From the UHGV virus genome UHGV-0133447: a stretch of 28,245 bases of DNA; one strand, 5' to 3'. The position numbers and the translations under genes are program-made. This DNA comes from a virus. Of this stretch, positions 6,494-27,249 are shown in pieces. Numbering within the stretch: position 1 is the first letter of the stretch; every line of letters starts with the position of its first letter. The notes under the pieces are model-generated. The model was not told the DNA's origin. It saw nothing but the letters and a program-made list of their open reading frames with translations, and made no database searches.

Positions 6494-6496
6494 GGC

Positions 6497-6522
6497 CAAA
6501 GAAAAAGCCCACCGAAGTGGGC
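6497..6522 (-). terminator. intrinsic terminator (minus strand) with UUCG-type tetraloop
   Basis: Minus-strand reading ggcccac-ttcg-gtgggc followed by TTTTCTTTGG. Lies downstream of the TerB-like gene. Confidence 0.5.
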
Positions 6523-6896
6523 CTTACAGCTATCATCATTTTTTATTAGGTGTGGTGCCGGGTGCCTCCCGGTAAGTCGCCGCCAGTCCACAGACGACTC
6601 GCAATGCGCAAAAAAACATATCAGACTGGCAATGCCCCTCCGCATAGGGGGATTCACCACACGGATAATTTAGGATGTAGTCATAGGCGGCGTCAATAAC
6701 TGACACTCTGTCAAAGGCATCATTACGATGCCTTTTGCACAGTGCTAATCACTGGATCTAATAAGGGGCCAGAGCAAAGCGATTACCCCGGCTACCAGCA
6801 CGCCATCAGCCAGGATTGACATCATTTTGCTGGTGAAGTCGATAGCAACCACCAGAAACAAAAGCACCCCGGCTGCGGCCCAGCGAAGTTTACCGA

Positions 6897-8505: not shown

Positions 8506-8581
8506 TGGTGCTGGTTGACGGAATCGAACCGCCGACATCCTGCTTACAAGGCAGGCGCTCTACCAGCTGAGCTAAACCAGC
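8506..8581 (-). tRNA. tRNA-Thr (anticodon UGU), phage-encoded
   Basis: Minus-strand 76-nt cloverleaf GCTGGTT-TA-GCTC-AGCTGGTA-GAGC-G-CCTGC-CTTGTAA-GCAGG-ATGTC-GGCGG-TTCGATT-CCGTC-AACCAGC-A-CCA. Acceptor 7 bp, D-loop GG, anticodon loop with U33 and A37, canonical T-loop, encoded CCA. Confidence 0.8.
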
Positions 8582-9621
8582 AAATTACGCATTTCACTGA
8601 CCGTCTGTTCAAATCTCTCGGTTTCCAGTTCGACACCTAGTCCCCTTCGCCCGAGAAGAGCAGCCTGCTTGAGCGTTGAGCCTGATCCAAAAAAGAAATC
8701 AGCTACAACATCACCCGGGCGGCTACTCGCTGTGATTATCTGCTCCAGCATATCCGCAGGCTTTTCACATGGGTGTTTACCTGGATAAAACTGAACAGGC
8801 TTATGAGTCCAGACGTCGGTATATGGCACCGTGACCGATACGCTGAATGGTCGCCGTAAACGGTAATATTCCTGCTGGAGTTCAGAATATTTTCGGCTTA
8901 ACGATTGCCAGGTGCCGACAAGCTGGTGGTGAGGTTTTCCCAGTTCGTTGCGTGAGTGCTTATCCATGGCGATTGTTTGAAACAAAGCCTGCAACTTTAA
9001 ATAATCGGCTTCGTTCGGTAGCTGCCACTGACTAAGGCCAAACCAGTGGGAAACCATATTTTTCTTACCTGTGGCTTCTGCAATCTGAGCCGACGTCACG
9101 CCAAGAGATTCCCGTGCATCACGGAAGTAAGAAATTAAAGGCGTCATGACGTGTTGCTTTAACTCATTACACTTTGCGGCATATCCATCGTCTTTGGGCC
9201 TGTATGGCCCCTGATAATGGTCGGCAAAAATGATACGCTCAGTGGCCGGGAAATAAGCGCGTAAGCTCTCCTTATTGCAGCCGTTCCATCGCCCTGATGG
9301 CTTAGCCCAGATGATATGGTTGAGCAGGTTAAACCGCTCTCTCACCAACAGCTCAATATCCGCTGCCAGGCGGTGCCCACAGAACAGATACATGCTGCCG
9401 GCAGGTTTTAACACTCGCCAGAACTGTGCCAGACAGCTATCCAGCCAACGTAAATAGTCTTCGTCCCCCTTCCATTGGTTATCCCAGCCGTTTGGCTTCA
9501 CCTTAAAATAAGGCGGATCGGTAACAATAAGATCAATGGAGTTATCGGGTAGCGATGGGAGGTATTGCAGGCAATCAGCATTGATTAACTCAATACTGGA
9601 TATTTTTACAGTATTTTTCAT
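8572..9621 (-). CDS. orphan DNA methyltransferase, N6-adenine/N4-cytosine (beta) class
   Basis: 349 aa with TDPPYF catalytic motif near the N-terminus. No adjacent restriction endonuclease. The ORF's last codons overlap the 5' end of the tRNA. Confidence 0.85.
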   Translation of the reverse strand: MKNTVKISSIELINADCLQYLPSLPDNSIDLIVTDPPYFKVKPNGWDNQWKGDEDYLRWLDSCLAQFWRVLKPAGSMYLFCGHRLAADIELLVRERFNLLNHIIWAKPSGRWNGCNKESLRAYFPATERIIFADHYQGPYRPKDDGYAAKCNELKQHVMTPLISYFRDARESLGVTSAQIAEATGKKNMVSHWFGLSQWQLPNEADYLKLQALFQTIAMDKHSRNELGKPHHQLVGTWQSLSRKYSELQQEYYRLRRPFSVSVTVPYTDVWTHKPVQFYPGKHPCEKPADMLEQIITASSRPGDVVADFFFGSGSTLKQAALLGRRGLGVELETERFEQTVSEMRNLLV

Positions 9622-10172: not shown

Positions 10173-11003
10173 TTATGCGATATTTATCAAATCAGGCACC
10201 TTTGTCACACGTTTAAGCTGTGAGTCGGTATAACTCTCTTCCTCAAAGCATCTTGTAACCAGACTTTCATAGAAAGGTTTCCAGCTATATCGCCAGGTAC
10301 GTTCTGGCAGACCAGGCAGCTCAGAGAGCATACCCCTGTATGCATTCGAAGACTTAGGACGACTATAACCGCGGCCTTCACAACGTTTACACACTTTGTA
10401 GACAGGCACTCCCTGCAGCTCTGACTCTTTACGGTCCAGGGTTTTTCCCGTACCGCCACACTGGCATCGCTTGCTGATTTTCCCGGTGCCGCCACATTTG
10501 AAGCAAAGAACATGGTCAACCTCTTCCACCTGACGTTTTACTTCAAAATCCGAAGGTGACTGCCTGAGGTCTTTTGCCCATTGCGGTAATCTCATTGTGT
10601 AGTGGCTTTTTTCCACCATTGAGGTTTTTTTTATGAAGCCTGAACCAGAACACTTCCTGCAATCTACGCTGTCAGCTGCAGACGAGGCATAGTCGTTATA
10701 AGCGAACCGAGCTATTATCAGCATACACAGCGGGAACTTCTTCCCTGCTGCTTTTCTTATCGATCGAGGCGCTTTTGATTTTGCATATTCAGCCAACCAA
10801 CTGACGGATGCCTTTCTGTCGTGTTCGCTGATTCCAGCTTTACCCAAAAACATTGACAGGCCTATTCCTGCCTCTGCCTGTGTCATCCCCAGAGCCGCCA
10901 TTACATCTGTCACAGTAAGTTGCTCGCTGGCGGTTGCAAGACCGCTATCGGAAATATGCATTCCTTTGGGCGCAAAAAATTTGGGAATTGATTCAATATT
11001 CAT
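10173..11003 (-). CDS. late-gene antitermination protein Q-like (Cys-rich, zinc-binding type)
   Basis: Repeated Cys pairs CRKCSGSG / CFKCGGTGK / CQCGGTGK / CKRCEGRG. Position directly upstream of promoter plus terminator and adjacent to DUF968 resembles Qin-type Q (memory). ATG at 11003 has a GGAG RBS; the track's GTG at 11021 is an alternative start. Confidence 0.65.
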   Translation of the reverse strand: MNIESIPKFFAPKGMHISDSGLATASEQLTVTDVMAALGMTQAEAGIGLSMFLGKAGISEHDRKASVSWLAEYAKSKAPRSIRKAAGKKFPLCMLIIARFAYNDYASSAADSVDCRKCSGSGFIKKTSMVEKSHYTMRLPQWAKDLRQSPSDFEVKRQVEEVDHVLCFKCGGTGKISKRCQCGGTGKTLDRKESELQGVPVYKVCKRCEGRGYSRPKSSNAYRGMLSELPGLPERTWRYSWKPFYESLVTRCFEEESYTDSQLKRVTKVPDLINIA

Positions 11004-11021
11004 GCTCAGTACTCCATACAC

Positions 11022-13937: not shown

Positions 13938-14410
13938 TCTGCCTCCAGCACTATTTTCAACTCAAACGGAACATCTCCTCCGCAATAGCAGAGCGGGCCA
14001 AGGTCAGACATGAGGCTCCACAGGGTCATTGACGTATAGCCATTTTCGTCTGTTATCGGGGGCGAAAAGTCTCCGAAGATCGCCGGGTGCTGGATTCGAT
14101 TCTCTTCGTGCTGGCTTCTCAAGTAACTTAGAGCTTCGGCAGTAAGTTTCACTTTTACGATGCTGTTGAGATTGACCGATATTTCTCTGGCCAACAGCGA
14201 AGAGGTGATACTGATACCGCGAGAAACCCCGCGGGTAATCTTGATGGCCCCTTTTCTCTCCAGCGCCTTGAGGTGCGTTGCTGCTGCATTGGGGGACCGG
14301 CACCCCAGCATGCCGGTCAGTTCGTAAGTTGTAGGCGGAAAACCATGTTTACGCTGATATTCGATCAGGAGGTCAAGGACCTCCTGCTGCCTTAAGGTCA
14401 AGGAAGTCAT
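13934..14410 (-). CDS. LexA-type N-terminal DNA-binding domain protein lacking the S24 peptidase domain
   Basis: From ATG 14410: MTSLTLRQQEVLDLLIEYQRKHGFPPTTYELTGMLGCRSPNAAATHLKALERKGAI closely follows the LexA DNA-binding-domain pattern. The ~90-aa C-terminal part has no Ser/Lys peptidase motifs. Start overlaps the C5-MTase stop (ATGA). Confidence 0.6.
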   Translation of the reverse strand: MTSLTLRQQEVLDLLIEYQRKHGFPPTTYELTGMLGCRSPNAAATHLKALERKGAIKITRGVSRGISITSSLLAREISVNLNSIVKVKLTAEALSYLRSQHEENRIQHPAIFGDFSPPITDENGYTSMTLWSLMSDLGPLCYCGGDVPFELKIVLEAE

Positions 14411-16389
14411 GCTGCCTGCTCCTCTCTGTTCACGCACATTTCGGGTAAGTTGGCGCGTACCAGCGCTTCGGCGAACGGCGGCGGGACGGCATTGCCACAG
14501 CGCGCGACCTGCTTATCTTTCGCGTATTTCACGCCGCGGTAATCCTGGTCAATGATGTACCACTCCGGAAAGCCCTGCGCCCGATAGAGCTCGTGCGGCT
14601 GCAGCATGCGCATGCCGATATCAACGATGCGGTAAGTCACTCCGCCGATTTCCACCAGCCCGGTGCATTCCTCTCCGCAGTATTCCTGCAGGAACGACAG
14701 CACCTGCTGCGCTCGCTCTTCGTCATAGTCCTCGACCGCCAGAGTCGTTTTAACCTCCCCTACATGCTGGCCACCGGCAGTGATAGTCGGCATCGGCTCG
14801 TCAGTTCGCTGGCCATCGCGGCAGGTTCCGCGCAGCTTAACCAGATGAGAAGCGACTAATGCATGGTGATCGACAGTCGTTACTGAATGCGCTGGCTCAT
14901 CCAGCCCCACGCCAGCGCCCTGATAATTCCCTCCGTAGTGTTTTGCCAGGAACGCACCAACTACAGCATGTTTCCCGCCACCAGCCACAACGGTGCCCAG
15001 CGGCTTATCCAGTCCTGGCACGCGAGGTGCCTGTCCTGGCCGTTCCCCGTATCCCATTTGAATGAGCGTCGGCACAACCAGCTGCGATTTACCTCCGCCG
15101 CCCGCGGTGATTGTTGCGCTAGGCTCATCCGCCCGGTGTCCGATGCTGGCGCCGAACTGCCGGGCGATAACCGGAGCGACGACACAGGCGCGCGATTCTT
15201 TCAGGATGGTGTGAGCGGGTTTATCGAGCGGGCGTGGTTTAGCCTGGTACTCGCTGCCGCCATTGCCAGCCAGGAACGGCGCCAGCTCTGCTTCAACAAT
15301 ACCCAGAGCGTGACCATTCCCGCCCGGGCGTTTTGCGGTACCGGCCGTCACCGTCGGCAACGGATCGGTGACTTCCTGCCCGGTAGCTCCAGTTCGGAAT
15401 TTTGTCAGATGAGGTACCGCAATTGCGTAGCCGTGGGTTTTCGTAATCGTCTGTAGCGGATCGTCCAGCGCCTGTCCCCGGAAACAGTCGTATTTGCCGC
15501 GTGTCGTTGTGTGATTGCACTTCACGATGAACGGCGAAGCGCTTTCGATAACAAAGCGCTGAATGCCGCGGGCAATCCGTTTTAGCGTATTCTCTGCCAG
15601 TGACTTTTTGCGACCGAAGATGCTCGGCGCGGGGATTGACCAGTCTATGCATTCCGCAGCTGTACGCCACGGCTCAAGCTGGCCCGCCAGCACGGCGGCA
15701 GACTTCGGATCCCCGTGCGTGGCTTCCGGCCAGACTATCAGTTTCCCGTCCCGGCGCATCACCATGAAGAACCGCTTACGGATGGTCGGCGCGCCATAAT
15801 CGCAGGCGCGCAGCTCGCGAAAATCGACGACATAACCCAGCCCGGCAATTAAGCGCTTGGCCTGCTCGCTATCCGGTGAAAACTCCAGAAACTCGCAACA
15901 CTCCACCAGTGCAGGATGATCTGCTGGAATACCGGTGGTAAGCATCCCGACAAATGCATTGAAAGTTTCACCGATGCGTGCCGGATCCGGTCGCATTTCT
16001 GCCGCGAGTAACGGACCCCACGTCTTAAACTCTTCGACGTTTTCCAGCATCATGACTCGCGGGCCAACATCCAGCGCCCAACGAATGACGATCCATGCCA
16101 GCCCTCGAATAGCTTTCTCTACTGGTTTAGCACCTTTCGCTTTAGAAAAGTGACGACAGTCAGGCGAGAACCATGCCAGGCCGACAGGCTTGCTACTGGT
16201 AGCGGCTAATGGGGATACATCAAACACACTTTCGCAATAGTGAAGCGTGTCGGGATGGTTAGTGCGGTGCATAGCAACGGCGTTAACATCGTGGTTAATA
16301 GCGATATCAACACTGCGCCCTATTGCCAGTTCAATACCTGTACTGGCTCCACCGCCGCCAGCGAAATTATCGACAATAATCTCACGCAT
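14407..16389 (-). CDS. DNA (cytosine-5)-methyltransferase with long repeat-containing variable region
   Basis: 660 aa. DNFAGGGG (motif I), SPDCRHFS (catalytic Cys), MMLENVEEF (ENV), C-terminal QGFP and GNAV motifs. The intervening ~250 aa carries about six related modules of the form P-x-x-T-I/V-T-A-G-G. GAGGGGG RBS. Confidence 0.8.
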   Translation of the reverse strand: MREIIVDNFAGGGGASTGIELAIGRSVDIAINHDVNAVAMHRTNHPDTLHYCESVFDVSPLAATSSKPVGLAWFSPDCRHFSKAKGAKPVEKAIRGLAWIVIRWALDVGPRVMMLENVEEFKTWGPLLAAEMRPDPARIGETFNAFVGMLTTGIPADHPALVECCEFLEFSPDSEQAKRLIAGLGYVVDFRELRACDYGAPTIRKRFFMVMRRDGKLIVWPEATHGDPKSAAVLAGQLEPWRTAAECIDWSIPAPSIFGRKKSLAENTLKRIARGIQRFVIESASPFIVKCNHTTTRGKYDCFRGQALDDPLQTITKTHGYAIAVPHLTKFRTGATGQEVTDPLPTVTAGTAKRPGGNGHALGIVEAELAPFLAGNGGSEYQAKPRPLDKPAHTILKESRACVVAPVIARQFGASIGHRADEPSATITAGGGGKSQLVVPTLIQMGYGERPGQAPRVPGLDKPLGTVVAGGGKHAVVGAFLAKHYGGNYQGAGVGLDEPAHSVTTVDHHALVASHLVKLRGTCRDGQRTDEPMPTITAGGQHVGEVKTTLAVEDYDEERAQQVLSFLQEYCGEECTGLVEIGGVTYRIVDIGMRMLQPHELYRAQGFPEWYIIDQDYRGVKYAKDKQVARCGNAVPPPFAEALVRANLPEMCVNREEQAA

Positions 16390-17335
16390 GAGCGGTCCCC
16401 CTCATGCTGCCGACCAGCCCACCAGCAACGGTGATGATTTCGCTGGTGGGCACGCGCTCCAGCCACAACTGGTTAATGTGGGCCTTCAGCTTGTTCTGCT
16501 GGGAGAACTCCAGATCCTCTGCGCCTTGTACCTGTCCAAAGACGAGTCCAACTTCCAGTGGCCAGATCCGGGATTCAGGCTCAGCCAATGATGCAACAGC
16601 ATCGGGGATGATCACTTCAGGAGACTGAACTGGCGAAACTGGTGACAGGAATTTTCCTGCAGCAAACTCAGCCAGCGCCATACTTGCGCGCCCTTTTGCT
16701 TCCAGCTCAACGCGATCGATATAGCTAAAATGTTCACCGCGCCAGGTCTTATCAAATACCGCAATGGCCCCGGCAAAGAATGCGCTGGTGGGCTTCTGCT
16801 TTTCGTCGGCCGGCACAAACCACGTTGGGAGATCGAATCCAATACGACCACGAATAAACATGATGTGATCGGCATATTCCGGCCACCATGTTTCACTTGT
16901 TGCTGACTTCACGAGGTAAATGTAACGACCACCCTTTTCACGCTGCTCGGCGGTATAGTTCATAATATGAGTCATGCCAGTGATGGCTTGTTTTTCATGG
17001 TACTGCGAACGGCTATACGGCGGATTAGCAAAGGCCGCTCCTCCGAGTTCTACCAAACGACCAGACCAGTCCTGCGTCAGCGCATTATCTTCAGCGGTAT
17101 ACCATGCCGGACATTTTGTATTGCTGTCGTCTGCAAACAGGTCCAGTACCAGCGGGCCAAACATAGCGTTAACGCCCCAGAACAGCAGATCAGGGGTACG
17201 CCATTGATCCCCGACTTCTTTTAAATAATGCGCACTACGCTGGCGCTGTTCCTCAAGTGCCAGGCAATAAGGGCTGACGGTTTTTGTTAAAGTTTGCTCT
17301 TCTGCGGTCATAGCTTCTTGTACTTCCTGACTCAT
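16382..17335 (-). CDS. phage Dam-like N6-adenine DNA methyltransferase with C-terminal extension
   Basis: 317 aa. WRTPD...FANPPYS motif characteristic of the phage N6-adenine methyltransferase family (memory). AGGGGA RBS. Confidence 0.8.
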   Translation of the reverse strand: MSQEVQEAMTAEEQTLTKTVSPYCLALEEQRQRSAHYLKEVGDQWRTPDLLFWGVNAMFGPLVLDLFADDSNTKCPAWYTAEDNALTQDWSGRLVELGGAAFANPPYSRSQYHEKQAITGMTHIMNYTAEQREKGGRYIYLVKSATSETWWPEYADHIMFIRGRIGFDLPTWFVPADEKQKPTSAFFAGAIAVFDKTWRGEHFSYIDRVELEAKGRASMALAEFAAGKFLSPVSPVQSPEVIIPDAVASLAEPESRIWPLEVGLVFGQVQGAEDLEFSQQNKLKAHINQLWLERVPTSEIITVAGGLVGSMRGTAHA

Positions 17336-17513: not shown

Positions 17514-17972
17514 TCAATCGGAGCACAAGTCACCTCCGCAGTAATTTCCGGCCAGATAGCATGACCCGGCGGAATCATTCATGTTTCTGGCGTTTCGAAC
17601 AGAAGCATTCTTAAGACGCAGGTATCGCTCTCTTGCTTTAGCCGTACAGTTGCTGTCACAAAGTTGCTGCCATACCGTCGCCGCACGGCGGTAATAGCGT
17701 TTCTCTTCCAGCTTTTTGGCTGTCGCTTCAAGGGCGAGAATCTCCCCCGAAAGCCCACCTGGCAGGTACTCTTCAATATCAATGGATCCCGCTACGAAGT
17801 AGATAAACCCACCAGTAACTTCAACGCTGGCAAGTTCCCCGTCGTAGTAAAGGCGATGAACAGCGCTCTTCACTGTTACCGGTTTGGTTTCAGGAAATGC
17901 CGCAGTGATATCGCGCAGCATTTTGCCTGGATTCTTCTCAATAAATTCAAAGATCGACTTGGCTATGTTCAT
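17514..17972 (-). CDS. hypothetical protein with PerC-like C-terminal motif
   Basis: KRYYRRAATVWQQL resembles the RRAA-x-RW signature of PerC-family activators (memory, uncertain). Start overlaps the replication-protein stop (ATGA). Confidence 0.4.
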   Translation of the reverse strand: MNIAKSIFEFIEKNPGKMLRDITAAFPETKPVTVKSAVHRLYYDGELASVEVTGGFIYFVAGSIDIEEYLPGGLSGEILALEATAKKLEEKRYYRRAATVWQQLCDSNCTAKARERYLRLKNASVRNARNMNDSAGSCYLAGNYCGGDLCSD

Positions 17973-18880
17973 CCCCGGAACCCCCGTGGAATCGTGGTTT
18001 GTACTGGACTAATTGAATTAACATCCCGCGGTCTGGTTTTGTCCCACGACTCCCTTGGCGGGCGGCCTTTAGCATCCCAGCGGATGGCGCTTTGCAGATA
18101 TCCCTCGAATTTTTTAGGGCCGAAAAGTGTCTCGGGTCGCATGTACTGGTATTGCTCGTCGTTGCCATGCCAGTGCTCATGCTTGACGTCGATTACCAGA
18201 TTCAAGTCGCTAACGGTATGACCTTCGCGGAGGCGGGCGCGAATGTTCTCCAGTGAGGTCTTAGATTTCTGGTAACGGGAACCGCTGACCAGATTCAGGT
18301 GTGCCAGAACTTCGATCGCGTTATCGGTAATAACAACTTCAGGATCCGGCTTATCGTCGGGTTCCGCAGGAGCCCGACAAGAAGGTTTTTTAGATGACGG
18401 ATCTAATGACGGATCTAATGACGGATCGCCTTCAACCATTGAGGGGTCCTCCCGCAATATTTGAGGGGGTACAGACCCATTATTTGAGGCATCAGAATTT
18501 GACCCCTCAAATTTTGAACCCTCAAATTCTGAGGCATCAAATTTTGATTGTTCACGTGGCGTTGCGTAGAAGATTTTTGCTTCAGCTGCTGCACGTTCAA
18601 GCATGTCCACATTGAGTTTATAAACGTTCGAATTATTCTTTCCACCCACGCGCCGTTCCTGCTTCTTCAGCCAGCCTTTAGCCTGAAGCTTTTTGATAGC
18701 GCTGCGGACAGTATTCTCGCTCTTGGCGCCGATCTGTCGCTGAATAGTGGTTACCGCTGGCCATGACACACCTTCGTCATTACTGAAATCTGCCAGGCGA
18801 GCCATGACCGCTATTTCTGAGATTATCAGCCCTTTGAAAGCGCATGCTTCCCATACGAGGCCGTGTAATTTACTGCTCAT
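17969..18880 (-). CDS. replication initiator / replisome organiser (lambda O-like) containing the origin iterons
   Basis: N-terminal winged-HTH-like domain, low-complexity linker (DPSLDPSLDPS), conserved-looking C-terminal domain. The linker-coding DNA carries tandem and inverted short repeats. GAGGG RBS. Confidence 0.65.
   Translation of the reverse strand: MSSKLHGLVWEACAFKGLIISEIAVMARLADFSNDEGVSWPAVTTIQRQIGAKSENTVRSAIKKLQAKGWLKKQERRVGGKNNSNVYKLNVDMLERAAAEAKIFYATPREQSKFDASEFEGSKFEGSNSDASNNGSVPPQILREDPSMVEGDPSLDPSLDPSSKKPSCRAPAEPDDKPDPEVVITDNAIEVLAHLNLVSGSRYQKSKTSLENIRARLREGHTVSDLNLVIDVKHEHWHGNDEQYQYMRPETLFGPKKFEGYLQSAIRWDAKGRPPRESWDKTRPRDVNSISPVQTTIPRGFRG
18393..18540. repeat. iteron cluster (candidate origin of replication) inside the replication gene
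   Basis: Tandem 12-mers atgacggatcta (18393-18430, about 2.5 copies). Multiple ATTTGAGGG-type repeats in both orientations, e.g. tttgaggggg 18460-18469, ccctcaaatt 18503-18512 and 18519-18528, tgaggcatca twice. Confidence 0.5.
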
Positions 18881-18889
18881 GGCTGCCCT

Positions 18890-19216
18890 CTACTTCCCTG
18901 AACTTGCGTTGAAACTGATCGAGTGGGCTAAAGCACTCGTGGGAATAGCCTTCCCGCAGGTAGATGACGCGACGTGTCTCAGGCTCCCAGCGGATAACTC
19001 TGACTGGATTGCCATAGTGGTCTTTGAACTTCCGGTTAACTTCTCGCATAACGCTTTTGCCCTCCGGTTAAAGACCCCCACAACTCCGCGTGCCCGACTG
19101 TGGTTACACTCGACCCATTTACCGCATACCATGCGCTCATACCGAAACGACGAAACGCCCGGGATCGGGTACATCCGTAGTTGCGGTAATTGAAGATTTA
19201 CGATTAAATTGCTCAT
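18890..19216 (-). CDS. hypothetical protein
   Basis: ATG at 19216 with GGAG RBS; the track start at 19237 is a GTG. Lies between the CII-like and replication genes. No family recognised. Confidence 0.35.
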   Translation of the reverse strand: MSNLIVNLQLPQLRMYPIPGVSSFRYERMVCGKWVECNHSRARGVVGVFNRRAKALCEKLTGSSKTTMAIQSELSAGSLRHVASSTCGKAIPTSALAHSISFNASSGK

Positions 19217-19221
19217 GCGGA

Positions 19222-19773
19222 TTATTTCTCCATACACAAAGATTTATTCGCCACGACGCCCGGAGCTGCACACTCGCGGGCGTCACTCTTTTCTGGCTGA
19301 CAAAAGACACGGAACAGTAACGTTAAATGTTCCTGCCATTTCGCCATCACCTGATAGCTGTTCTCCTCAATTTGCTCGCGTTCTGCCTGGTCAATTACCC
19401 CATCAGCTGTAGCTTTACGCAGGTACTGCGAGTGTTTTCCTATCCACTCAATGGACTCCATAAGACGCTGGTTAATATCTGCGTTGTCCACGTCTTCAAT
19501 ATCTGCCAACGGAACAAAAACGCCGTTCGAGTGACGCGCTATAGCATTGGCAATATGATTTGACCCACCAGCACGCTGCAGCACCATTGCCCAGCCGAGA
19601 GGGAAAATCTGATCACCATCGGCACGTAAACGGTTAAACAATGCGTTTTCAGTAACGCCCAGCCACTCCGCAGCTTCCACGTAACCACCGTCCAGTTCGG
19701 TGATAGTCTTTTTAATCGCGGCCACCAGCCACGCCGGTTGCTTCTCTACTTTCCATTCAGGTTCTATACCCAC
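19222..19773 (-). CDS. CII-like / YdaT-like early regulatory protein
   Basis: GTG start with strong AGGAGG RBS. Segment ITELDGGYVEAAEWLGVTENALFNRLRADGDQIFPLGWAMVLQ matches the CP76/CII-like HTH pattern (memory). Position immediately after cro. Confidence 0.5.
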   Translation of the reverse strand: MGIEPEWKVEKQPAWLVAAIKKTITELDGGYVEAAEWLGVTENALFNRLRADGDQIFPLGWAMVLQRAGGSNHIANAIARHSNGVFVPLADIEDVDNADINQRLMESIEWIGKHSQYLRKATADGVIDQAEREQIEENSYQVMAKWQEHLTLLFRVFCQPEKSDARECAAPGVVANKSLCMEK

Positions 19774-19817
19774 GGCTTACCTCCTACTTCTGTGGTTAAC
19801 GCTGCTAAAACCAAATG

Positions 19818-20018
19818 TTATTGTTTGGAATAGATATCTGGTCGGAGATCAAACTTGGTGATCGCACCGGATGTGCTTTTTTCCAGTTTTTTTGCCAGAT
19901 CAAATCCAGCTTTTTTGTAGCCGTTAAAAACTAAACGCAGATAACCGGGTGTAGAGCCAACGTTTGCAGCTAAATTGCTCTGTTGCTCTTTAGTTAATGA
20001 ATCCCAGAACTCTTTCAT
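19818..20018 (-). CDS. cro: Cro-like repressor
   Basis: 66 aa from the ATG at 20018, preceded by AGGAGG. Divergent from cI across an operator-rich spacer. Small HTH-like protein. Confidence 0.7.
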   Translation of the reverse strand: MKEFWDSLTKEQQSNLAANVGSTPGYLRLVFNGYKKAGFDLAKKLEKSTSGAITKFDLRPDIYSKQ

Positions 20019-20029
20019 ATATGTACCTC

Positions 20030-20105
20030 CTGTGTACATATTACACGAAAGAAATGAACCTTCAAGGTACTTGTACCTTGAAGGTACACACGGTTTAATT
20101 TCAAT
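20030..20105. promoter_or_regulatory. divergent cI/cro promoter-operator region
   Basis: Palindromic operators gtaccttgaaggtac (20074-20088) and accttcaaggtac (20058-20070). Minus-strand TTGAAG-16-TAATAT promoter candidate toward cro. Plus-strand TTTAAT -10 candidate immediately before the cI ATG. Confidence 0.5.
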
Positions 20106-20780
20106 ATGAAAACAATCCAGGAAATCAGGCGGTTAAACGCCAGAAAATTGCGTGATGGTGTTGGCGGTAATATTTACTTCGCCAATATGATTGATCGCGA
20201 GCCTACTCAAACCAGCCGGTTCATGGGAGATGGCGCCACTAAAAACATCGGCGATGCAATGGCAAGGCACATTGAAAAGTGTTTTGACTTACCTACTGGG
20301 TGGTTAGATCAGGAACATCAAACCACTAATGTTGCTAAAACGCCCGATGTCTCTGATACAAATAGAAATATCACCATGGTTCCGGTTATATCCTGGGTAC
20401 AAGCAGGAGCATGGACCGAAGTTGGCTATGCTGAGGTTGATTTGAATAGCACTGAAAACTATCCATGCCCTGTGCCTTGTGGGCCGATGACTTATATTCT
20501 TCGTGTTATTGGCGACTCAATGATCGACGAATATAGGCCCGGTGATATGATTTTTGTTGATCCCGAAGTTCCAGCAGTGCATGGAGATGATGTGATCGCC
20601 TTAATGCACGCTTCTGGTGAGACTACATTTAAACGGTTGATTGAAGATGCAGGACAACGCTATCTAAAAGCACTTAACTCAAATTGGCCAGAACCTTACA
20701 TCAAAATCAATGGTAATTGCTCTATCATTGGCACCGTAATTTTTTCCGGTAAACCAAGACGATACCGAACGAAAACATAA
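20106..20780 (+). CDS. cI: CI-like phage repressor (HTH plus S24 LexA-type peptidase domain)
   Basis: 224 aa. C-terminal VIGDSMIDEYRPGDMIFVD...FKRL carries the Ser/Lys S24 signature. N-terminal HTH region. Divergent from cro. Confidence 0.9.
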   Translation: MKTIQEIRRLNARKLRDGVGGNIYFANMIDREPTQTSRFMGDGATKNIGDAMARHIEKCFDLPTGWLDQEHQTTNVAKTPDVSDTNRNITMVPVISWVQAGAWTEVGYAEVDLNSTENYPCPVPCGPMTYILRVIGDSMIDEYRPGDMIFVDPEVPAVHGDDVIALMHASGETTFKRLIEDAGQRYLKALNSNWPEPYIKINGNCSIIGTVIFSGKPRRYRTKT

Positions 20781-20848: not shown

Positions 20849-20953
20849 TACCTAAAAGAAACAGCGAACAGGCAGGACGCCCACGAAGTAGCCGCCCGGG
20901 GCATATGAAGTCCGGGATGATTCGCTGACAGATAAACCAAATAGGAACAGATC

Positions 20954-21187
20954 ATGGCAAGCAAAGGCATTGAAAACCTTATCAAGGACGCATTGGCAAA
21001 CGGCTGTCATGTAGTCCGTAAAGCGCATCGCTTCGAGGTAAGCAAGAAAGGCCAAAAATCAATCACTCTTATTATTTGTGAAGATGGCACAGCTTACCGG
21101 GGAGATATTGACCTAACGATCGCCATAGCCATTCGCACTCAAAAAGAAATGCGCAGAATCCTCGGCCTGCCAGCCAAGGCAAGTTAA
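20954..21187 (+). CDS. hypothetical early protein (77 aa)
   Basis: First ORF after the PL-like promoter; AGGA about 8 nt upstream. No family recognised. Confidence 0.45.
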   Translation: MASKGIENLIKDALANGCHVVRKAHRFEVSKKGQKSITLIICEDGTAYRGDIDLTIAIAIRTQKEMRRILGLPAKAS

Positions 21188-21900
21188 TTACCACAGGTGT
21201 CTTCGGGAGGGGTTGCGGAGCTGGATTGACCACCAGCAACAGAAACTCACCCGACATACAGCAGCCGTTTAGCCCACGGCGTCGGGGGTCCAGTAGACCT
21301 GGATTAATACTGTAGGGGTTGTGCCGGTTGGTCGCCGGCGCCCCGCCCGAAGATTCCTGATCGAACATGGCGAAAGCCGACAGCGTTGAAGGCGATTTTC
21401 TCGGTTTGCGCGCTAAACAATAGCGGGGGTGAAATCGGGGCGGAGAAGCAGAATCCGCGATGTCGGGACTTGATACTTCCGGCCAGACCAACAAGCCGAA
21501 TGATCGCGTAACGGTCCTTTGCATCTGCCCCGGCGAGGTGGCGCCGCCGGACCGGGGCAGATGAATCGTACACAACATGAAAGCGCATTCCATCTTCATC
21601 CGTCGTGGGGACTGGTTTGTAACTGAAGGAGTGCGCTTCCAGTTGTGAACGGCAATATTCACGACCGTTGTATGGCACATGCAGCGTTAGCAGCCCGGAT
21701 GGTTCCCTTGAAGTTCCATGCGCTATCCGGACAACTGGAATGTGCAAGCCAAGTGTTTCAGGCACGACGTGCGCCCCACCAGCGCGGCGAAAAGGTGTGA
21801 CCCCCGGGAAGAGTCCGGGACACAACAGGAAAGAGTACTGAAGATGCCAGGAAACGCCCTACCGCCAGGCAGATAGACGGGTTATCCCGCAAGGGGTGGC

Positions 21901-22043
21901 GGCAGTGCTCTTACCGTTGTGGTGTAGCTCAAATGGATAGAGCGCCCCTTATGTGGGGAGTTGAGCACTAACCAATGTTCGCAACACAGGTTATCTCATG
22001 CGGCCGGCCGGACGTTATGCGGGTTCAAATCCCGTCACCACAG
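21901..22043 (+). ncRNA. candidate tRNA-like structured element, copy B1
   Basis: Leader ggcagtgctcttaccgttgtggt. TGTGGTG (21918-21924) pairs with CACCACA (22036-22042). D-arm-like GCTC-AAATGGATA-GAGC. T-arm-like GCGGG-TTCAAAT-CCCGT (22019-22035). About 60 extra nt between the anticodon-like region and the T-arm. No encoded CCA. Confidence 0.3.
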
Positions 22044-22080
22044 CGCACAACGATGAGGGCATTGACGAGCAAGGCACAGA

Positions 22081-22099
22081 GTCTGGTTCGATTCCAGAC
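22081..22099 (+). other. tRNA T-arm-like hairpin (loop TTCGATT)
   Basis: gtctgg-ttcgatt-ccagac, a 6-bp stem with a loop identical to the tRNA-Thr T-loop at 8506-8581. Confidence 0.4.
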
Positions 22100-22138
22100 G
22101 CCAGGATAGCTCTATATCTGGTGATGGGCAGGGAAAAG

Positions 22139-22155
22139 GTCCGTTCGATTCGGAC
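22139..22155 (+). other. tRNA T-arm-like hairpin (loop TTCGATT)
   Basis: gtccg-ttcgatt-cggac, a 5-bp stem with the same loop sequence. Confidence 0.4.
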
Positions 22156-22158
22156 ACC

Positions 22159-22290
22159 GGCAGTGCTCTCTTCGTTGTGGTAATTGCGGCTATGCGCACG
22201 TGACGAGCCAACCCGTTCATGGAATGCGTTTCCGGGCAGTGTACGTCGCCGGTTATGGCTTAACCCGGCAGGTGGAGGCACCACCGCCAC
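22159..22290 (+). ncRNA. candidate structured element, copy B2
   Basis: Leader ggcagtgctctcttcgttgtggt matches the 21901 leader at 20 of 23 positions. gttgtgg (22173-22179) can pair with ccacaac (22284-22290). Internal cgtcgccgg motif. Confidence 0.25.
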
Positions 22291-22529
22291 AACCTAGTTA
22301 ACTGTGCTGTGTGTAGTCTTGGCGGTTATCCAGTTTTCCACTATCCAAAGGAGGAAGAGGATAACGTTCTGATGGATAACCGCCCTTTTTACACAATACA
22401 AAAGAGCATCACCGGGCGACGGGCTCATTACCCAATCCACCCGGGCGGCGTCCTAACCGCAGGTGCTCTTCTGTGTTGTGTACGGAGAAATTCCCGGCGG
22501 TGGCAGCCGCCTTTCGAGAGGGTAAAACC

Positions 22530-22957: not shown

Positions 22958-23785
22958 ATGTCTCAGTTAGACAGCGGTACTTTTCAGCAGGTTAAAGATC
23001 TGGTGCTTTCCGGTTATCACCTGAACGATATCCCCGGCCTGGCCTGTCCGACCGCCCTGCTACCGCAGAATACCAGCATTGAAAGCCTGGAGCGTTTTGC
23101 TCTTGAGCGTTTCCGTTTCCGCGGTGCAATGGACACGACTAGCATTGATGATTTCGTTCGCTATTCTGTCGCTTATGCCCTGGAAGAAGAAAAAGCACGT
23201 TGCTTTATTGATGCCGATAACATGCTGGCTCGTTCTATCTTCAACATCGGTACGCTGGATAATCCCGGCCACGCTGATAACGTCGCCTCGATCAAGCTAA
23301 AGAAAACAGCGCCCTTCCGCGCGTTACTGGCGATCAACGGCGATCACCTTAATCAGAAGCAAATCGCCGAATGGCTTGAAGACTGGAGCGACTATCTCAC
23401 TGCGTTCGATGCTGACGGTAACACGATGAAAATCGCCCAGGCCGCTCAGGCAGTTCGCCGCGTCACCATCCAGCAAACTAATGCCTCCGACCATGAAGAT
23501 GGTGATTTCAGTGGCAAAAAATCGCTGATGCAGAGTATTGAAGCCAGCAGTAAAGAGGTTATGCCGGTAGCGTTTGAGTTTAAGTGTGTACCCTATGAAG
23601 GCTTGGGCGAACGTCGTTTCAGTCTGCGCAACAGTCTGCTGAAAAGTAATGACCCGGTATTCGTCCTGCGTATCGTCCAGTTGGAAGCCCAGGAAGAAGC
23701 GATCGCCAATGAGTTCCGTGATCTGCTGGTTGGCAAGTTCGCCGGCAAGCCGGTAGAAACCTTTATCGGCAACTTCAAGGCCTGA
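22958..23785 (+). CDS. DUF2303-like protein (YfdQ-like)
   Basis: 275 aa with AAGGA RBS. Size and position relative to the HD-domain gene match YfdQ-type prophage proteins (memory). Hairpin aaatccccg/cggggattt follows at 23797-23822. Confidence 0.55.
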   Translation: MSQLDSGTFQQVKDLVLSGYHLNDIPGLACPTALLPQNTSIESLERFALERFRFRGAMDTTSIDDFVRYSVAYALEEEKARCFIDADNMLARSIFNIGTLDNPGHADNVASIKLKKTAPFRALLAINGDHLNQKQIAEWLEDWSDYLTAFDADGNTMKIAQAAQAVRRVTIQQTNASDHEDGDFSGKKSLMQSIEASSKEVMPVAFEFKCVPYEGLGERRFSLRNSLLKSNDPVFVLRIVQLEAQEEAIANEFRDLLVGKFAGKPVETFIGNFKA

Positions 23786-23917
23786 TTGCTCTCCATTAAA
23801 TCCCCGTCGTTGCGGGGATTTATTAAAGCGTAATCCTGCAATTAATCGCCACCTGGCGAGGGATTCCTACACCCAAAAATCAGCGCTGTGCAGAGCGCAA
23901 TTAAATGGAGAAATACG

Positions 23918-24445
23918 ATGAGCTTTATTCAAACGTTCACAGGCAAGCACTTTAACTATCTCGATATCCAGCTGGATGCCATTGAGATCGAAGATATCGC
24001 TAACGCACTCTCGAATATTTGCCGCTTTGCTGGCCATCTTCCGGAGTTCTACAGCGTCGGTCAGCACAGCGTGTTAACCAGTCACCTGGTACCACAGGAG
24101 TTTGCACTTGAAGCACTGCTGCACGATGCCGCAGAGGCTTATTTGCAGGATATTCCAGCACCGCTTAAACGCCTGCTCCCGGACTACCGCGCCATTGAGG
24201 ATCGGGTTGATGCTGCTATCCGTCAAAAATTTGGCCTGCCATCTGAGCAGCACCCGACCGTGAAGTATGCCGACCTTGTGATGCTGGCCAGCGAACGTCG
24301 CGACTTTGAAATCGACGACGGCACCCACTGGCCGATGCTCGAAGGCATTATTCCTACCGACCAATTTGTGATTAATCCCGTCCGACCTGGTCAGTCTTAC
24401 GGCATGTTTATGAACCGCTTTAACCAACTGATGGAGCGGCGCTAA
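23918..24445 (+). CDS. HD-domain phosphohydrolase (YfdR-like 5'-deoxynucleotidase)
   Basis: About 175 aa from ATG 23918 (GGAG 7 nt upstream). H...HD motif LLHDAAEAY and downstream Asp residues typical of HD-domain hydrolases. Confidence 0.7.
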   Translation: MSFIQTFTGKHFNYLDIQLDAIEIEDIANALSNICRFAGHLPEFYSVGQHSVLTSHLVPQEFALEALLHDAAEAYLQDIPAPLKRLLPDYRAIEDRVDAAIRQKFGLPSEQHPTVKYADLVMLASERRDFEIDDGTHWPMLEGIIPTDQFVINPVRPGQSYGMFMNRFNQLMERR

Positions 24446-24645
24446 TGGCACATGTGAAAGTGAAAGAATTGGTTGCTGCAGCATACGCTGCAGCACCTGA
24501 CCTACCACCAGCAGCAGCACAATTAATGCAAGACATAGCGTCAAGGCTGGATGTGACCTTTGTCGCCCTTACAGAGGCAATGGACCAGAACACCGCTATG
24601 GCCGCGATGATAGCGAACCTGAGCGAGGAAAACAGAAATGGCTAA
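24445..24645 (+). CDS. hypothetical small protein (66 aa)
   Basis: Start overlaps the upstream stop (TAATG) and its own end overlaps the ParB-like start by 8 nt, so it is translationally coupled on both sides. Confidence 0.45.
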   Translation: MAHVKVKELVAAAYAAAPDLPPAAAQLMQDIASRLDVTFVALTEAMDQNTAMAAMIANLSEENRNG

Positions 24646-25426
24646 AAACTCGATCGATGCTTATGGCGCCAGCGGCAAGACAAACGTTCTGATGTTCGAG
24701 CCGAAAAATCTGCATATTGTCACTGACAAGGCTCACCCGCTTTACGATGAGCGTATTCACTTACCTCTCAGTGAGGCAATGGTGCTGAACATCATGGATC
24801 AAGGTGTTCTGGAGCCGATTATTGTGTGGAAAGACCCGGAAACGGGGCTGTCCTGTGTGGTCGATGGCCGTCAGCGTGTCCGCCATACCCTGGAAGCTAA
24901 CAGGCGTCTGGCAAAAGAGGGAAAAACCCCACTGCTGGTTCCGGCTGTCACTAAACGCGGTTCTGCTGTTCGTATGGCGCAGGCAATGGTCAGCGCAAAC
25001 GAAATCCGCCAGGCCGATACACCGCTGGGCCGAGCCAAAAAGATGGCTGATGCACTGGAGCGCGGGCATGACGAGGAAGACCTCGCGCTGATGTTCGGCG
25101 TCAGCGTCCCCACTGTACGCGCTACGCTATCCCTTCTGGATGCCACTCAGGCAGTCAAAGACGCGGTAGAGTCCGGCACAGTAACAGTTACCCAGGCACG
25201 TCAACTGGCATCACTAAAACCCGAAGAACAGCGGGAAAAGGTAGCCGAAATCGAAGCGGCGACCGCTGGCACTACTGGTCATGAAAAAGCGCGTCGTCAG
25301 CGCCAGGTTCTCGGCGATAAGAAACCGCGCCTTAAAACTCGCAAAGAAATCACTAAAGCCCTCGAAGCTGCCAGCGGTGAATACGCTGATGCTCTCCGCT
25401 GGGTACTTGGGGAGGTAACATTATGA
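24638..25426 (+). CDS. ParB-like nuclease-domain protein with HTH
   Basis: 262 aa. N-terminal LEPIIVWKDPETGLSCVVDGRQRV matches the ParB/Srx GxxR core. Central EEDLALMFGVSVPTVRATLSLL is HTH-like. GAGGAA RBS. Confidence 0.7.
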   Translation: MAKNSIDAYGASGKTNVLMFEPKNLHIVTDKAHPLYDERIHLPLSEAMVLNIMDQGVLEPIIVWKDPETGLSCVVDGRQRVRHTLEANRRLAKEGKTPLLVPAVTKRGSAVRMAQAMVSANEIRQADTPLGRAKKMADALERGHDEEDLALMFGVSVPTVRATLSLLDATQAVKDAVESGTVTVTQARQLASLKPEEQREKVAEIEAATAGTTGHEKARRQRQVLGDKKPRLKTRKEITKALEAASGEYADALRWVLGEVTL

Positions 25427-26499
25427 GTAAAGTAGGAGATCATTTCTTTGAGTTTCCTGCATCACGTGGAACTCAGGGCGTTTCAATCGTCCTGATGCTG
25501 AGTGTTCCTGCACGGACCCTTACGCGAGTTCTCGCCAGCGATAATTACGGGGACACTCTTGAACGCTCGCAGCGAGAACTGAACCCAGCCAGGGCGAAAA
25601 AGTTTTATCAGTATCTTGTTGAAGCATACGAAAACAAAGAGCCATTTATCATTCCACCGCTGGTAGGTAACTGCGATTCGTATGTTGAATTCGAAGAGTT
25701 CGGAAACACTAATGTCGGGGTGGCCCGATTCCCAATGGATGCAGAGATTAAATTGTTTGATGGTCAGCATCGCGCAGCAGGTATTGCGGAATATTGTCGC
25801 ACCATTGATGAACCGATCCATGTCCCGATGATGCTTACTCTCCAGTTGCCACTGAAAACGCGGCAGCAGTTTTTCTCGGACATTAACAACAATGTTTCGA
25901 AGCCATCTGCGGCAATCAACATGGCCTATAACGGGCGCGATAAGAACGCGCAGGTGATGGTCAGCTTTATCAGTTCACACGACGTCTTTTCTGAAGTCAC
26001 CGATTTTGAGCATAACGTCGTTCCCGCGAAAAACGATAAGTGGGTGAGCTTCAAGGCCCTTAGTGATGCCACAGCAAAATTTTCAGGTTCCTGCTCGCAG
26101 GATGATCTTGAAGGATTATGGAATGCGTGGCTTATGCTGACAGGTTTAGATGATATTCGCCGCGGTACGAATCAAGCCGAATATAAACGCGAGTATATCC
26201 AGTTCCATGCCGTGATGATTAATGCCTTCGGTTACGCAGTGCAGCGGCTAAGCGAAGGCCGGGGAGTTCGTGGGGTCACGCTGATGATTGAGGATCTGGT
26301 AATGAATACCGGCATTGCCGATCGTGAAGATTTCTTTCTTATTTCATCATGGGTCGGAATTTGCGCCAGCTGTGAGAAAGCTAGGCCAACGGTCATTGCG
26401 AATGTATCCGCTCAAAAGGCTGCAGCATCACGCCTGATGGATGCCATCGTGAATAAAAGCTTGTCTGTTAGTCGCGGTAAGGAGGCCAGCCATGACTGA
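25423..26499 (+). CDS. DGQHR-domain protein (DndB-like)
   Basis: 358 aa with the literal motif LFDGQHRAAGIAE. Size similar to DndB-family proteins. Start overlaps the ParB-like stop by 4 nt. Confidence 0.7.
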   Translation: MSKVGDHFFEFPASRGTQGVSIVLMLSVPARTLTRVLASDNYGDTLERSQRELNPARAKKFYQYLVEAYENKEPFIIPPLVGNCDSYVEFEEFGNTNVGVARFPMDAEIKLFDGQHRAAGIAEYCRTIDEPIHVPMMLTLQLPLKTRQQFFSDINNNVSKPSAAINMAYNGRDKNAQVMVSFISSHDVFSEVTDFEHNVVPAKNDKWVSFKALSDATAKFSGSCSQDDLEGLWNAWLMLTGLDDIRRGTNQAEYKREYIQFHAVMINAFGYAVQRLSEGRGVRGVTLMIEDLVMNTGIADREDFFLISSWVGICASCEKARPTVIANVSAQKAAASRLMDAIVNKSLSVSRGKEASHD

Positions 26500-27073
26500 G
26501 GCTGAATTAGCGCTTGAACGAGCAAAAAAGCTGGCGTTCTTAATGACAGAGCGTTTCAGTATGAACCCCATTAGCGCCAAACTGCTTAATGAAGCATGGC
26601 GTCTTGCATTCCCTGACGAAGTTGCAGTGGCCAGGCGCATGAGGGCGCTGGTAGAGGCGCTGGAGAAGGCGCAGACCAAAAACGCACTCGTTGCCGGCGG
26701 CATTGAGGCTACAGCAAAGCTACATGAGCGCATCGCCGAGCTGGAAGAAGCAGAGCAAAAACTCTGTGCCGCTAACGTGACGCTTGATGCTCGCGCGGAA
26801 TTGGCTGAGCGCCGGTTGGCAGAGATGGAGTCCCGTACCGTCACCATTGAGCCATTCCGCTCGTTTGTCACTGATGCCGACTTAGCAGCGCTCCACCGCT
26901 TCGCCGAATGCTGTGATGACCCTGAATCTGGCGGTCACGATTTGGAACAAGAGCAGGTAAGGCGGCTTGAGGCAATCGGAGCATTGCAGCGTTCGGGGCG
27001 AATTAGCTACATCACGAGCTTTGGTGATGTCCTGATTTCGATTACCGCTGGCATCAAGTGGGAGGCTAAGTGA
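26492..27073 (+). CDS. hypothetical coiled-coil protein
   Basis: 193 aa. Start overlaps the DGQHR stop by 8 nt. Ala/Glu/Leu-rich heptad-like central region. Confidence 0.45.
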   Translation: MTEAELALERAKKLAFLMTERFSMNPISAKLLNEAWRLAFPDEVAVARRMRALVEALEKAQTKNALVAGGIEATAKLHERIAELEEAEQKLCAANVTLDARAELAERRLAEMESRTVTIEPFRSFVTDADLAALHRFAECCDDPESGGHDLEQEQVRRLEAIGALQRSGRISYITSFGDVLISITAGIKWEAK

Positions 27074-27249
27074 TGGCAGAACGCTGGAAAATTTATCTCA
27101 CTATCGCATTCATCGCCCTTGGCGCTACACCGATAAGCATGGTAGCTGCAAAGATTTATGTACCCTCATGGGCGCTTATTTGCGGGCACTGTGGCGCGAT
27201 AATAGCCGGATTTATTTGTGCAGAATTAGGAAGGGGAGCCGACCAATGA
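27073..27249 (+). CDS. small hydrophobic protein (58 aa)
   Basis: ATG overlaps the upstream stop (TGATG) and its stop overlaps the next ATG (ATGA). Two hydrophobic segments and a CGHCG motif. Below the ORF-track size cutoff, translated by hand. Confidence 0.35.
   Translation: MAERWKIYLTIAFIALGATPISMVAAKIYVPSWALICGHCGAIIAGFICAELGRGADQ

Follow-up and report, generated by a model that had tools for sequence, protein, structure and literature searches.

The replication gene of a Klebsiella prophage carries, in its middle part, a short and strongly patterned stretch of DNA. This gene, rep, lies on the minus strand of the virus genome UHGV-0133447, which was analysed over its whole length of 28,245 base pairs (bp; hereafter the window) and belongs to a Klebsiella prophage of the lambdoid type. 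In the replication region it shares 96-99% identity with Klebsiella phage Kp4866-6. Within rep, positions 18394-18547 are taken up by repeats of two kinds, and this element is likely the origin of theta replication of the prophage, placed inside rep as ori-lambda is placed inside O. The features of the gene, in window coordinates, are as follows.

17969-18880, minus strand: rep, replication initiator of 303 amino acids, with HTH_36 and Phg_2220_C domains
18563-18880, minus strand: winged-helix N-domain, amino acids 1-106, modelled by AlphaFold2 with a predicted local distance difference test score (pLDDT) of 91-98
18488-18547, minus strand: four tandem 15-bp iteron units, with cores at 18537-18547, 18522-18532, 18507-18517 and 18492-18502
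18432-18487, minus strand: three degenerate iteron-like units, at 18477-18487, 18454-18464 and 18432-18442
18394-18429, minus strand: 12-mers in tandem (GATCCGTCATTA on the coding strand), about 3 copies with one GATC apiece
18347-18562, minus strand: disordered interdomain linker, amino acids 107-178, which holds every repeat element
17972-18346, minus strand: helical C-domain (Phg_2220_C), with a tail modelled at low confidence that ends in IPRGFRG

Rep is a member of the HTH_36 plus Phg_2220_C phage replication initiators (PHROG 428), with both domains above their curated cut-offs. In Pfam, HTH_36 covers amino acids 22-71 (1.1e-8; 35.2 bits, cut-off 25) and Phg_2220_C covers amino acids 191-263 (1.5e-22; 79.9 bits, cut-off 27; 3.2e-23 in another Pfam run). 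NCBIfam TIGR02220 is matched at 67.6 bits (cut-off 66.65), PHROG 428 “replication initiation protein” at 1.5e-62, and PHROG 391 “O-like” at 1.7e-30. At the nucleotide level, rep had no megablast match among complete E. coli genomes.

The AlphaFold2 model of Rep, whose alignment was built on 65 diverse relatives, divides the protein into two folded domains and a linker. In Foldseek, every match is a MarR-type winged-helix protein. Searched against the PDB, the family profile finds the N-domain of DnaD (2vn2) at E=9e-5, and 2v79/8ojj at 0.03, while Pfam DnaD_N stays, at 19.2 bits, under its cut-off of 27. This N-domain is presumed to bind the iterons. The linker (amino acids ~110-175) has a pLDDT of 47-56 and is without secondary structure. 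The helical core of the C-domain (amino acids 180-271) reaches 93-98, and the C-domain model as a whole 87.6. A search for significant structural neighbours of the C-domain model found none, and Foldseek with the whole of Rep recovered only the winged helix. The C-domain does match PHROG 1701 “DnaD-like helicase loader” at 3.3e-8, and it is presumed to recruit the host replisome.

The tail of Rep is an observation in its own right. The ending IPxGFRG (or SGFRS/T), at 17969-17995 on the minus strand of the window, closes Reps whose C-domains are otherwise unrelated, of the Phg_2220_C type and of the lambda-O-C-like type, and it is encoded immediately ahead of the point where the next gene, overlapping rep, starts. 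The ending may serve as a short binding motif, or it may reflect a constraint that the downstream ribosome-binding site imposes.

A repeat finder and Tandem Repeats Finder delimited the two repeat elements as a perfect 12-mer tandem at 18394-18429 and a periodic array at 18482-18547, the latter with a 15-bp (and 30-bp) period. On the coding strand, each unit of the array comprises an 11-bp near-palindromic core, TCA[A/G]AAT[T/C]TGA, and four variable bases. In coding-strand order the cores of the four tandem units are TCAAAATTTGA, TCAGAATTTGA, TCAAAATTTGA and TCAAATTCTGA. The three degenerate units that follow are spaced by 22-23 bp, share (C)CCTCAA(A)T, take part in the inverted-repeat pairs I4, I7, I8 and I11, and have G/C-rich flanks that are inverted relative to units 2 and 3. 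With them the iteron array spans 18432-18547, or rep nucleotides 334-449 of 912. The 12-mer ATGACGGATCTA then recurs in 2.8 tandem copies. No promoters or terminators were found within the array.

This density of repeats is unusual for the window. In a scan that counted the commonest 8-mer and its reverse complement in every 120-bp window, the most repeat-dense region was 18306-18601, with a multiplicity of 4; 20 block-shuffles gave a maximum of 2-3, and one other region reaches 3. The 8-mer ATTTGAGG occurs exactly four times in the 28,245 bp, every time within the 69 bp of 18459-18527 and twice per strand, where by our estimate ~0.9 occurrences would be expected by chance in the whole window on both strands. 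Core-like motifs with up to 2 mismatches number 15 against 11.1 expected; the excess is due to the 9 inside the array, and outside rep they are no more frequent than chance. The other locus of multiplicity 3 is at 24475-24519 (plus strand), where GCTGCAGCA occurs three times at spacings of 12 and 24 bp between a YfdR-like and a ParB-like gene.

These results agree for the most part with the first-pass annotation of the DNA, made from its letters alone. The tandem 12-mers described there are present as such, and the low-complexity linker to which the repeats were assigned is indeed modelled as disordered (pLDDT below about 55). The bounds proposed for the repeats, 18393-18540, were right as to location; their right end needs moving, as the array reaches 18547, 7 bp further. 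Likewise, the ATTTGAGGG-type repeats reported in both orientations exist, and they are really core halves with the G-rich spacers of the 15-bp unit. Since the array encodes amino acids ~112-150 and the 12-mers amino acids ~151-163, all of the repeats fall within the disordered linker.

Conservation was examined in 80 loci that a scan of viral contigs had recovered and that fall into three tiers by identity of Rep (~99%, 88-93% and 61-63%); the annotated phages phiNP, SfIV, phiP27 and Klebsiella P7641 were added to these (N-domains 42-50% identical). At least three in-frame core motifs, confined to the linker, are present in 77 of 77 distinct homologous genes. The more distant tiers have 3-7 copies of a unit in which TCAAAATCTGA is followed by four bases. 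The first-pass annotation had held that repeats absent from homologues would speak against an origin; they are found in every one of these genes and are conserved at the DNA level.

The nature of this conservation emerges from codon usage. In 16 representative genes, units were defined by the peptide pattern S-x-x-[D/E/G]-x and compared with the rest of the same genes. The first Ser of the unit is encoded by TCA in 77 of 82 cases, as against 24% of other Ser codons; the unit Lys is AAA in 51 of 51 (67% of other Lys codons); and Ser at the third codon is TCT in 57 of 59 units (15% of other Ser codons), with Fisher p-values of 3e-34, 1e-8 and 5e-37, respectively, all of which overstate the significance. 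Codon 4, by contrast, is variable at its wobble base and codon 5 throughout; codon 5 may encode Ala, Pro, Gly, Val, Thr, Leu or other residues. When the window is compared with nine relatives of 50-62% amino-acid identity, identical codons are used at 67% of conserved residues in the linker, compared to 43% in the N-domain and 50% in the C-domain. Thus the least structured part of the protein is the part most conserved at silent sites. Judged from these codon patterns, the constraint on the array acts on the DNA and not on the protein. In the best explanation, the linker peptide would be a by-product of the DNA element, free to vary wherever the DNA is free.

The GATC sites of the 12-mer tandem, at 18400, 18412 and 18424, put three sites into 36 bp at a spacing of 12 bp. 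The window as a whole has 116 GATC sites where 109 are expected by chance; only local, position-specific conservation is meaningful. Such conservation is observed. In the 16 representative genes, the Asp-Pro pairs located after the array are encoded by GAT-CC, which creates GATC, in 37 of 37 cases, and the pairs within or before the array by GAC-CC in 24 of 24. In distant relatives, a further spaced core, TCAGAATCTGG, is kept 3′ of the array, together with 2-3 motifs of the form GATCCRTCA or GATCCRCAA, which are 24 bp apart in most genomes and 21 and 24 bp apart in phiP27. The GATC repeats of the 12-mers are a candidate Dam/SeqA-sensitive element or a candidate unwinding element.

The array also follows one domain of the protein. 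The N-domain, the TCAAAATCTGA array and the GATC pair travel together, and they are joined to three different C-domains. The first is Phg_2220_C (the window, phiNP). The second is lambda-O-C-like (SfIV gp41, Klebsiella phage P7641, and YfdO of the K-12 remnant CPS-53). The third, of another type, is found in phiP27 L17, whose gene is followed by DnaC and helicase genes. The converse exchange is seen in the Rep of Salmonella phage 118970_sal3, where the C-domain is 78% identical to that of the window and the N-domain is unrelated. Its linker DNA has different repeats, of 23 bp in 4.1 copies (rep nucleotides 380-473) and a 12-bp tandem, ACAGGAGATTAC, in 3.7 copies (nucleotides 523-565), which is without GATC and stands just before the C-domain. 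Aeromonas phage 56, whose Rep is 31% identical, has 22-bp repeats in 3.4 copies in the linker. Such co-variation, read from the sequences, is the classical lambdoid signature, in which the DNA-binding domain of the initiator and its putative cognate sites are exchanged as a unit. Separately from this, the succession of iterons and a short 12-mer tandem recurs in 118970_sal3 independently of the sequence.

The surroundings of rep are those of an early-right operon. On the minus strand the order is cro-like gene, cII-like gene, DUF4222 gene, rep, PerC/YfdN-like gene, Dam-family methyltransferase, C5 methyltransferase and a protein with a LexA DNA-binding domain; these are followed by RusA, a KilA-N protein, a DUF968 protein, the Q antiterminator, lysis genes (their position inferred) and terminase. 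The S24 repressor lies on the other side from the rep operon, with the early-left operon, which includes YfdQ/YfdR-like, ParB-like and DndB-like genes. The neighbours discussed below are located as follows.

19818-20039, minus strand: cro-like gene
19222-19773, minus strand: cII-like gene (Pfam Phage_CP76)
18870-19049, minus strand: small DUF4222 gene, overlapping the start of rep (Pfam DUF4222, 2.9e-17)
17514-17972, minus strand: PerC/YfdN-like gene, its start overlapping the rep stop (PHROG 1324, 3.1e-49)
16382-17335, minus strand: Dam-family N6-adenine methyltransferase gene, downstream in the rep operon (Pfam Dam, 1.1e-42)
10173-11021, minus strand: Q antiterminator
20106-20780: S24 repressor

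The DUF4222 gene is a constant upstream neighbour of rep, found in 13 of 13 sequences (the window and 12 homologous loci). Two overlapping frames 5′ of rep (18870-19237, minus strand) stay open in most of the diverged relatives, at 10 of 13 sequences with the window counted in. The second of them, an open reading frame (ORF) at 18890-19237, encodes 108-115 amino acids without a family match and has a conserved N-terminal half, LPQLRM.PVPG..FRYER...W..CNHSRA. It may form an overlapping gene pair with DUF4222, or the two may yield a frameshift product.

The gene after rep had been called PerC-like in the first-pass annotation, which also stated that no P-like or DnaC-like loader follows and advised a look for one elsewhere in the prophage. 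It is indeed PerC/YfdN-like, being 26% identical to K-12 YfdN (E=9e-12), with a Pfam PerC match (0.0016) under the cut-off. It is an optional companion of rep, following it in some homologues and absent from that place in many others. It recurs directly 3′ of rep genes with different C-domains (SfIV gp42; K-12 yfdO-yfdN), and in 118970_sal3 an in-frame fusion joins it to rep in a product of 437 amino acids. In relatives it is located at 4439-4933 of locus L083, 2392-3705 of L087 (118970_sal3) and 8388-8882 of L088. The absence of a loader likewise holds. Among the genes from rep to the Q antiterminator, all searched with Pfam, none is P-, DnaC- or DnaB-like, and tblastn with lambda P, phiP27 DnaC and the phiP27 helicase gave no match at E<0.2 in the window or in the 45.5-kilobase Kp4866-6. 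In homologous loci, rep is followed by DNA methyltransferases or by the PerC-like gene; in most relatives a methyltransferase gene comes directly after rep, or after the PerC-like gene (then Dam). The Dam-family enzyme of the phage is a possible partner of the GATC sites.

Other parts of the prophage have features of their own. A YfdR-like gene at 23888-24445 (plus strand) encodes a protein 66% identical to YfdR of E. coli K-12, and a YfdQ-like DUF2303 protein is encoded at 22958-23785 (plus strand). K-12 YfdR is reported to bind DnaA and inhibit the DnaA-DnaB interaction (PMC4776307), and the homologue may bear on how a phage without a loader acquires DnaB. Three DNA methyltransferases (N6/N4, C5 and Dam-family) are encoded at 8572-9621, 14407-16389 and 16382-17335, all on the minus strand, and a set of ParB-HTH, DndB-like and dATP/dGTP-pyrophosphohydrolase genes occupies 24638-28154 on the plus strand. 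Together they point to heavy investment in DNA modification or anti-restriction. An Rfam tRNA match at 21918-22043 (plus strand; 40 bits over 126 nucleotides), not called by ARAGORN, lies inside an ORF-poor stretch (~20950-22450) between the repressor and the early-left genes. On the late-region side, an STnc100 small RNA match (100.7 bits) and a tRNA-Thr(TGT) gene are found at 6494-6691 and 8506-8581, both on the minus strand.

Several lines of evidence lead to the reading of 18394-18547 as an origin. The repeats are non-random, and all of them fall inside the disordered linker of a genuine initiator. The array is kept in 77 of 77 genes with constraint at the DNA level and position-specific GATC. 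It co-varies with the N-domain, and it matches the relative position of the lambda iterons. The lack of a loader or helicase gene is also listed in its favour.

Other observations weigh against this reading. Scans of AT content and of nearest-neighbour stability found no lambda-like AT-rich unwinding tract beside the array. The richest 40-mer of rep, at 70% AT, is ~55 bp from the array in the part coding for the N-domain, and the flanks of the array are 51-55% AT, compared to an 80% AT 40-mer immediately right of iteron 4 in lambda. The minima of nearest-neighbour stability reach a z of only ~2. No DnaA box lies near the array. With one mismatch or fewer, TTATCCACA has 4 matches in the window, which is the chance level, and the closest, at 19791-19799, is ~1.2 kilobases away. 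Units 5-7 match the core weakly, differing from it at 2-4 positions. Finally, the compared sequences are related and the repeat units are non-independent, which is why the Fisher values above make the effect look more significant than it is.

A working mechanism can be drawn from these data. Judging by gene order, Rep would be made from the early-right operon, as the fourth product after cro, the cII-like gene and DUF4222. Dimers of its winged-helix N-domain would then bind the palindromic cores, TCA-N5-TGA, every 15 bp, together with the looser units, to form an O-some-like complex; binding of Rep to the cores is suggested by the co-variation and the conservation at the DNA level. This complex would strain the neighbouring DNA, and the strands would probably open in or beside the GATC 12-mers, a speculative placement made because there is no lambda-type AT tract. 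Methylation of GATC by host Dam and by the Dam-family enzyme of the phage may, equally speculatively, tune firing or sequestration by SeqA. The Phg_2220_C C-domain would recruit host DnaB, directly or through host DnaC, as no P, DnaC, DnaB or G39P-type protein is encoded by the phage.

A bolder version sees here a lambdoid origin that works without a phage loader and is gated by methylation. In it, the phased GATC repeats, maintained beside the iterons through selection on synonymous codons and served by the Dam-family methyltransferase encoded downstream, would act both as the place of opening and as a Dam/SeqA switch. Host DnaB (with or without DnaC) would be taken over directly by the C-domain of Rep or by its conserved IPxGFRG tail, the YfdR homologue would help by detaching DnaB from DnaA, and the PerC/YfdN-like protein would be an accessory replication factor and not a transcription activator. 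As a whole, this proposal seems to us unlikely.

Among the other explanations, the one that survives best holds that the array is a cluster of Rep-binding sites for autoregulation, copy control or handcuffing, and that the strands open elsewhere in the genome. Clusters of iterons outside origins are known in iteron plasmids, and the missing AT-rich unwinding element beside the array fits such a role. Yet core-like motifs outside rep are at chance level, the window holds no second repeat cluster of this kind, and in every lambdoid case studied the in-gene iterons are the origin (PMC7466680). We regard this explanation as distinctly improbable.

It is still less probable, and indeed very unlikely, that the repeats merely reflect a slippage-prone, low-complexity linker (SKFDA/SEFEG, DPSL), with a DNA regularity owed to recent duplication and concerted evolution rather than to protein binding. 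Copy number does differ between relatives (3-7 units), which slippage would produce, the encoded segment is disordered, and the units of one gene are not independent samples. Concerted evolution, however, predicts units that are uniform within a genome and drift between genomes, and the reverse is observed. The 11-bp core is the same across genomes that share only 43% codon identity at the conserved residues of the N-domain, whereas the 4-nucleotide spacer differs between neighbouring units. Moreover, the choice of GAT or GAC in Asp-Pro pairs depends on position, where N-domains are unrelated the repeats found at this place are unrelated too, and the core is palindromic, as expected for the site of a dimeric winged-helix protein.

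That the repeats are bound by another protein (the PerC/YfdN-like, cII-like or DUF4222 protein or a host factor), or work through RNA, unrelated to the Rep N-domain, is scarcely credible: the PerC-like gene often adjoins rep, and is fused to it in one phage, and DUF4222 is always beside it, but the type of array tracks the N-domain and not the neighbours, the TCAAAATCTGA array being present with or without a PerC-like gene and the array of 118970_sal3 changing with the N-domain while the C-domain and the PerC-like part stay.

The reading of the element as an origin inside rep would show where replication probably starts in a widespread group of prophages of Klebsiella, Enterobacter, Escherichia and Salmonella; the closest protein cluster by itself comprises about 1000 sequences. 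It offers a clean example of an overlapping DNA function read from synonymous-site conservation in a disordered linker, and it defines an exchangeable cassette of N-domain, iterons and GATC pair that is joined to three C-domains. In practical terms, it yields a candidate for a minimal replicon and a point at which prophage replication might be blocked. It also raises the question of how a lambdoid initiator loads DnaB without a phage P, DnaC or helicase gene, an AT tract or DnaA boxes.

Origins of the DnaA-dependent iteron-plasmid and oriC type are a poor match, since DnaA boxes above the chance level are missing from the window. The Dam-dependent origins, among them those with the oriC 13-mers and the GATC heptamer repeats of P1 oriR, share features with the element. 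As in these, a conserved cluster of phased GATC sites in short tandem repeats adjoins the candidate initiator sites and lies inside the candidate origin, and the operon of the window element also has a gene for a Dam-family methyltransferase. They differ in that the window element is without DnaA boxes, has only 2-3 GATC sites, and has repeats of 53% AT.

Close parallels are found in the replication module of SfIV, SfV and SfII and in the K-12 remnant CPS-53 (yfdO-yfdN-yfdM). Their N-domains are 49-50% identical to that of the window, the TCAAAATCTGA array and the GATCCGTCA pair are present, and a PerC/YfdN-like gene follows rep, with a methyltransferase gene next in CPS-53. Homologues of yfdQ and yfdR are found in the early-left operon. 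The difference is in the C-domain, which in SfIV gp41 and YfdO is lambda-O-C-like and not Phg_2220_C. The SfIV genome paper describes the module, with a methylase in SfII and SfV and none in SfIV, and does not mention an origin or iterons. The term “initiator-solo” was not found in the literature searched.

Francisella phage KIRK provides a parallel from the same protein family. Its Phg_2220_C protein, Fhv_0043, has an internal amino-acid repeat, and in-gene iterons have been predicted and likened to those of lambda (PMC7924643). KIRK has a gene for a G39P-type helicase loader beside the initiator and has its repeats in AT-rich DNA, while the Klebsiella element has neither. The repeats of Aeromonas phage 56 and of Salmonella phage 118970_sal3 fit the same pattern, and all of these are predicted origins.

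The closest likeness is to ori-lambda of lambda and the Stx lambdoid phages, the in-gene layout of which has been described (PMC7466680). At least four predicted initiator-binding repeats (four tandem and three degenerate) lie in the part of rep that codes for the interdomain linker, and the analogy to lambda O and its ori drawn in the first-pass annotation gains from the near-equal relative position of the iterons, at nucleotides 334-449 of 912 here and, for the four annotated iterons of lambda O, 349-433 of 900. In both, the single sites have dyad symmetry, the N-domain and iterons are swapped as one module apart from the C-domain, and cro and a cII-like gene precede the element in the early-right operon. 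The window units also contain CCCTCAAA, which is found in the lambda half-site TCCCTCAAA as well, possibly by coincidence.

The differences from lambda begin with the initiator, which is of the HTH_36/Phg_2220_C type in the window and of the Phage_rep_O type (PF04492, the sole Pfam match of O) in lambda. Membership of Rep in the lambda O family was considered and rejected: BLASTP gives E>1, Pfam is negative, and hhalign against a 16-sequence alignment of the lambda-O C-domain gives a probability of ~0.6%, aligning only the region of the motif R-x-x-[D/E]-G ... W ... P-x-x-L, without significance. HHpred has been reported to draw O itself as HTH_36 plus Phg_2220_C (PMC5509034), a result not reproduced in this analysis. 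The sites differ too, with a 15-bp period and an 11-bp core in the window and 18-bp sites placed 20-24 bp from start to start in lambda. The window lacks both the 80% AT tract and a P gene, and has conserved GATC repeats beside its iterons. Three particulars set the element apart, namely its 15-bp period with an 11-bp core, its GATC repeats, maintained through selection on synonymous codons, in place of an AT tract, and its lack of a phage loader, and none of them is categorically new. On present sequence comparisons, it is best filed as a putative lambda-style origin within an initiator gene, in an HTH_36/Phg_2220_C family for which no sequence relation to lambda O was detected.

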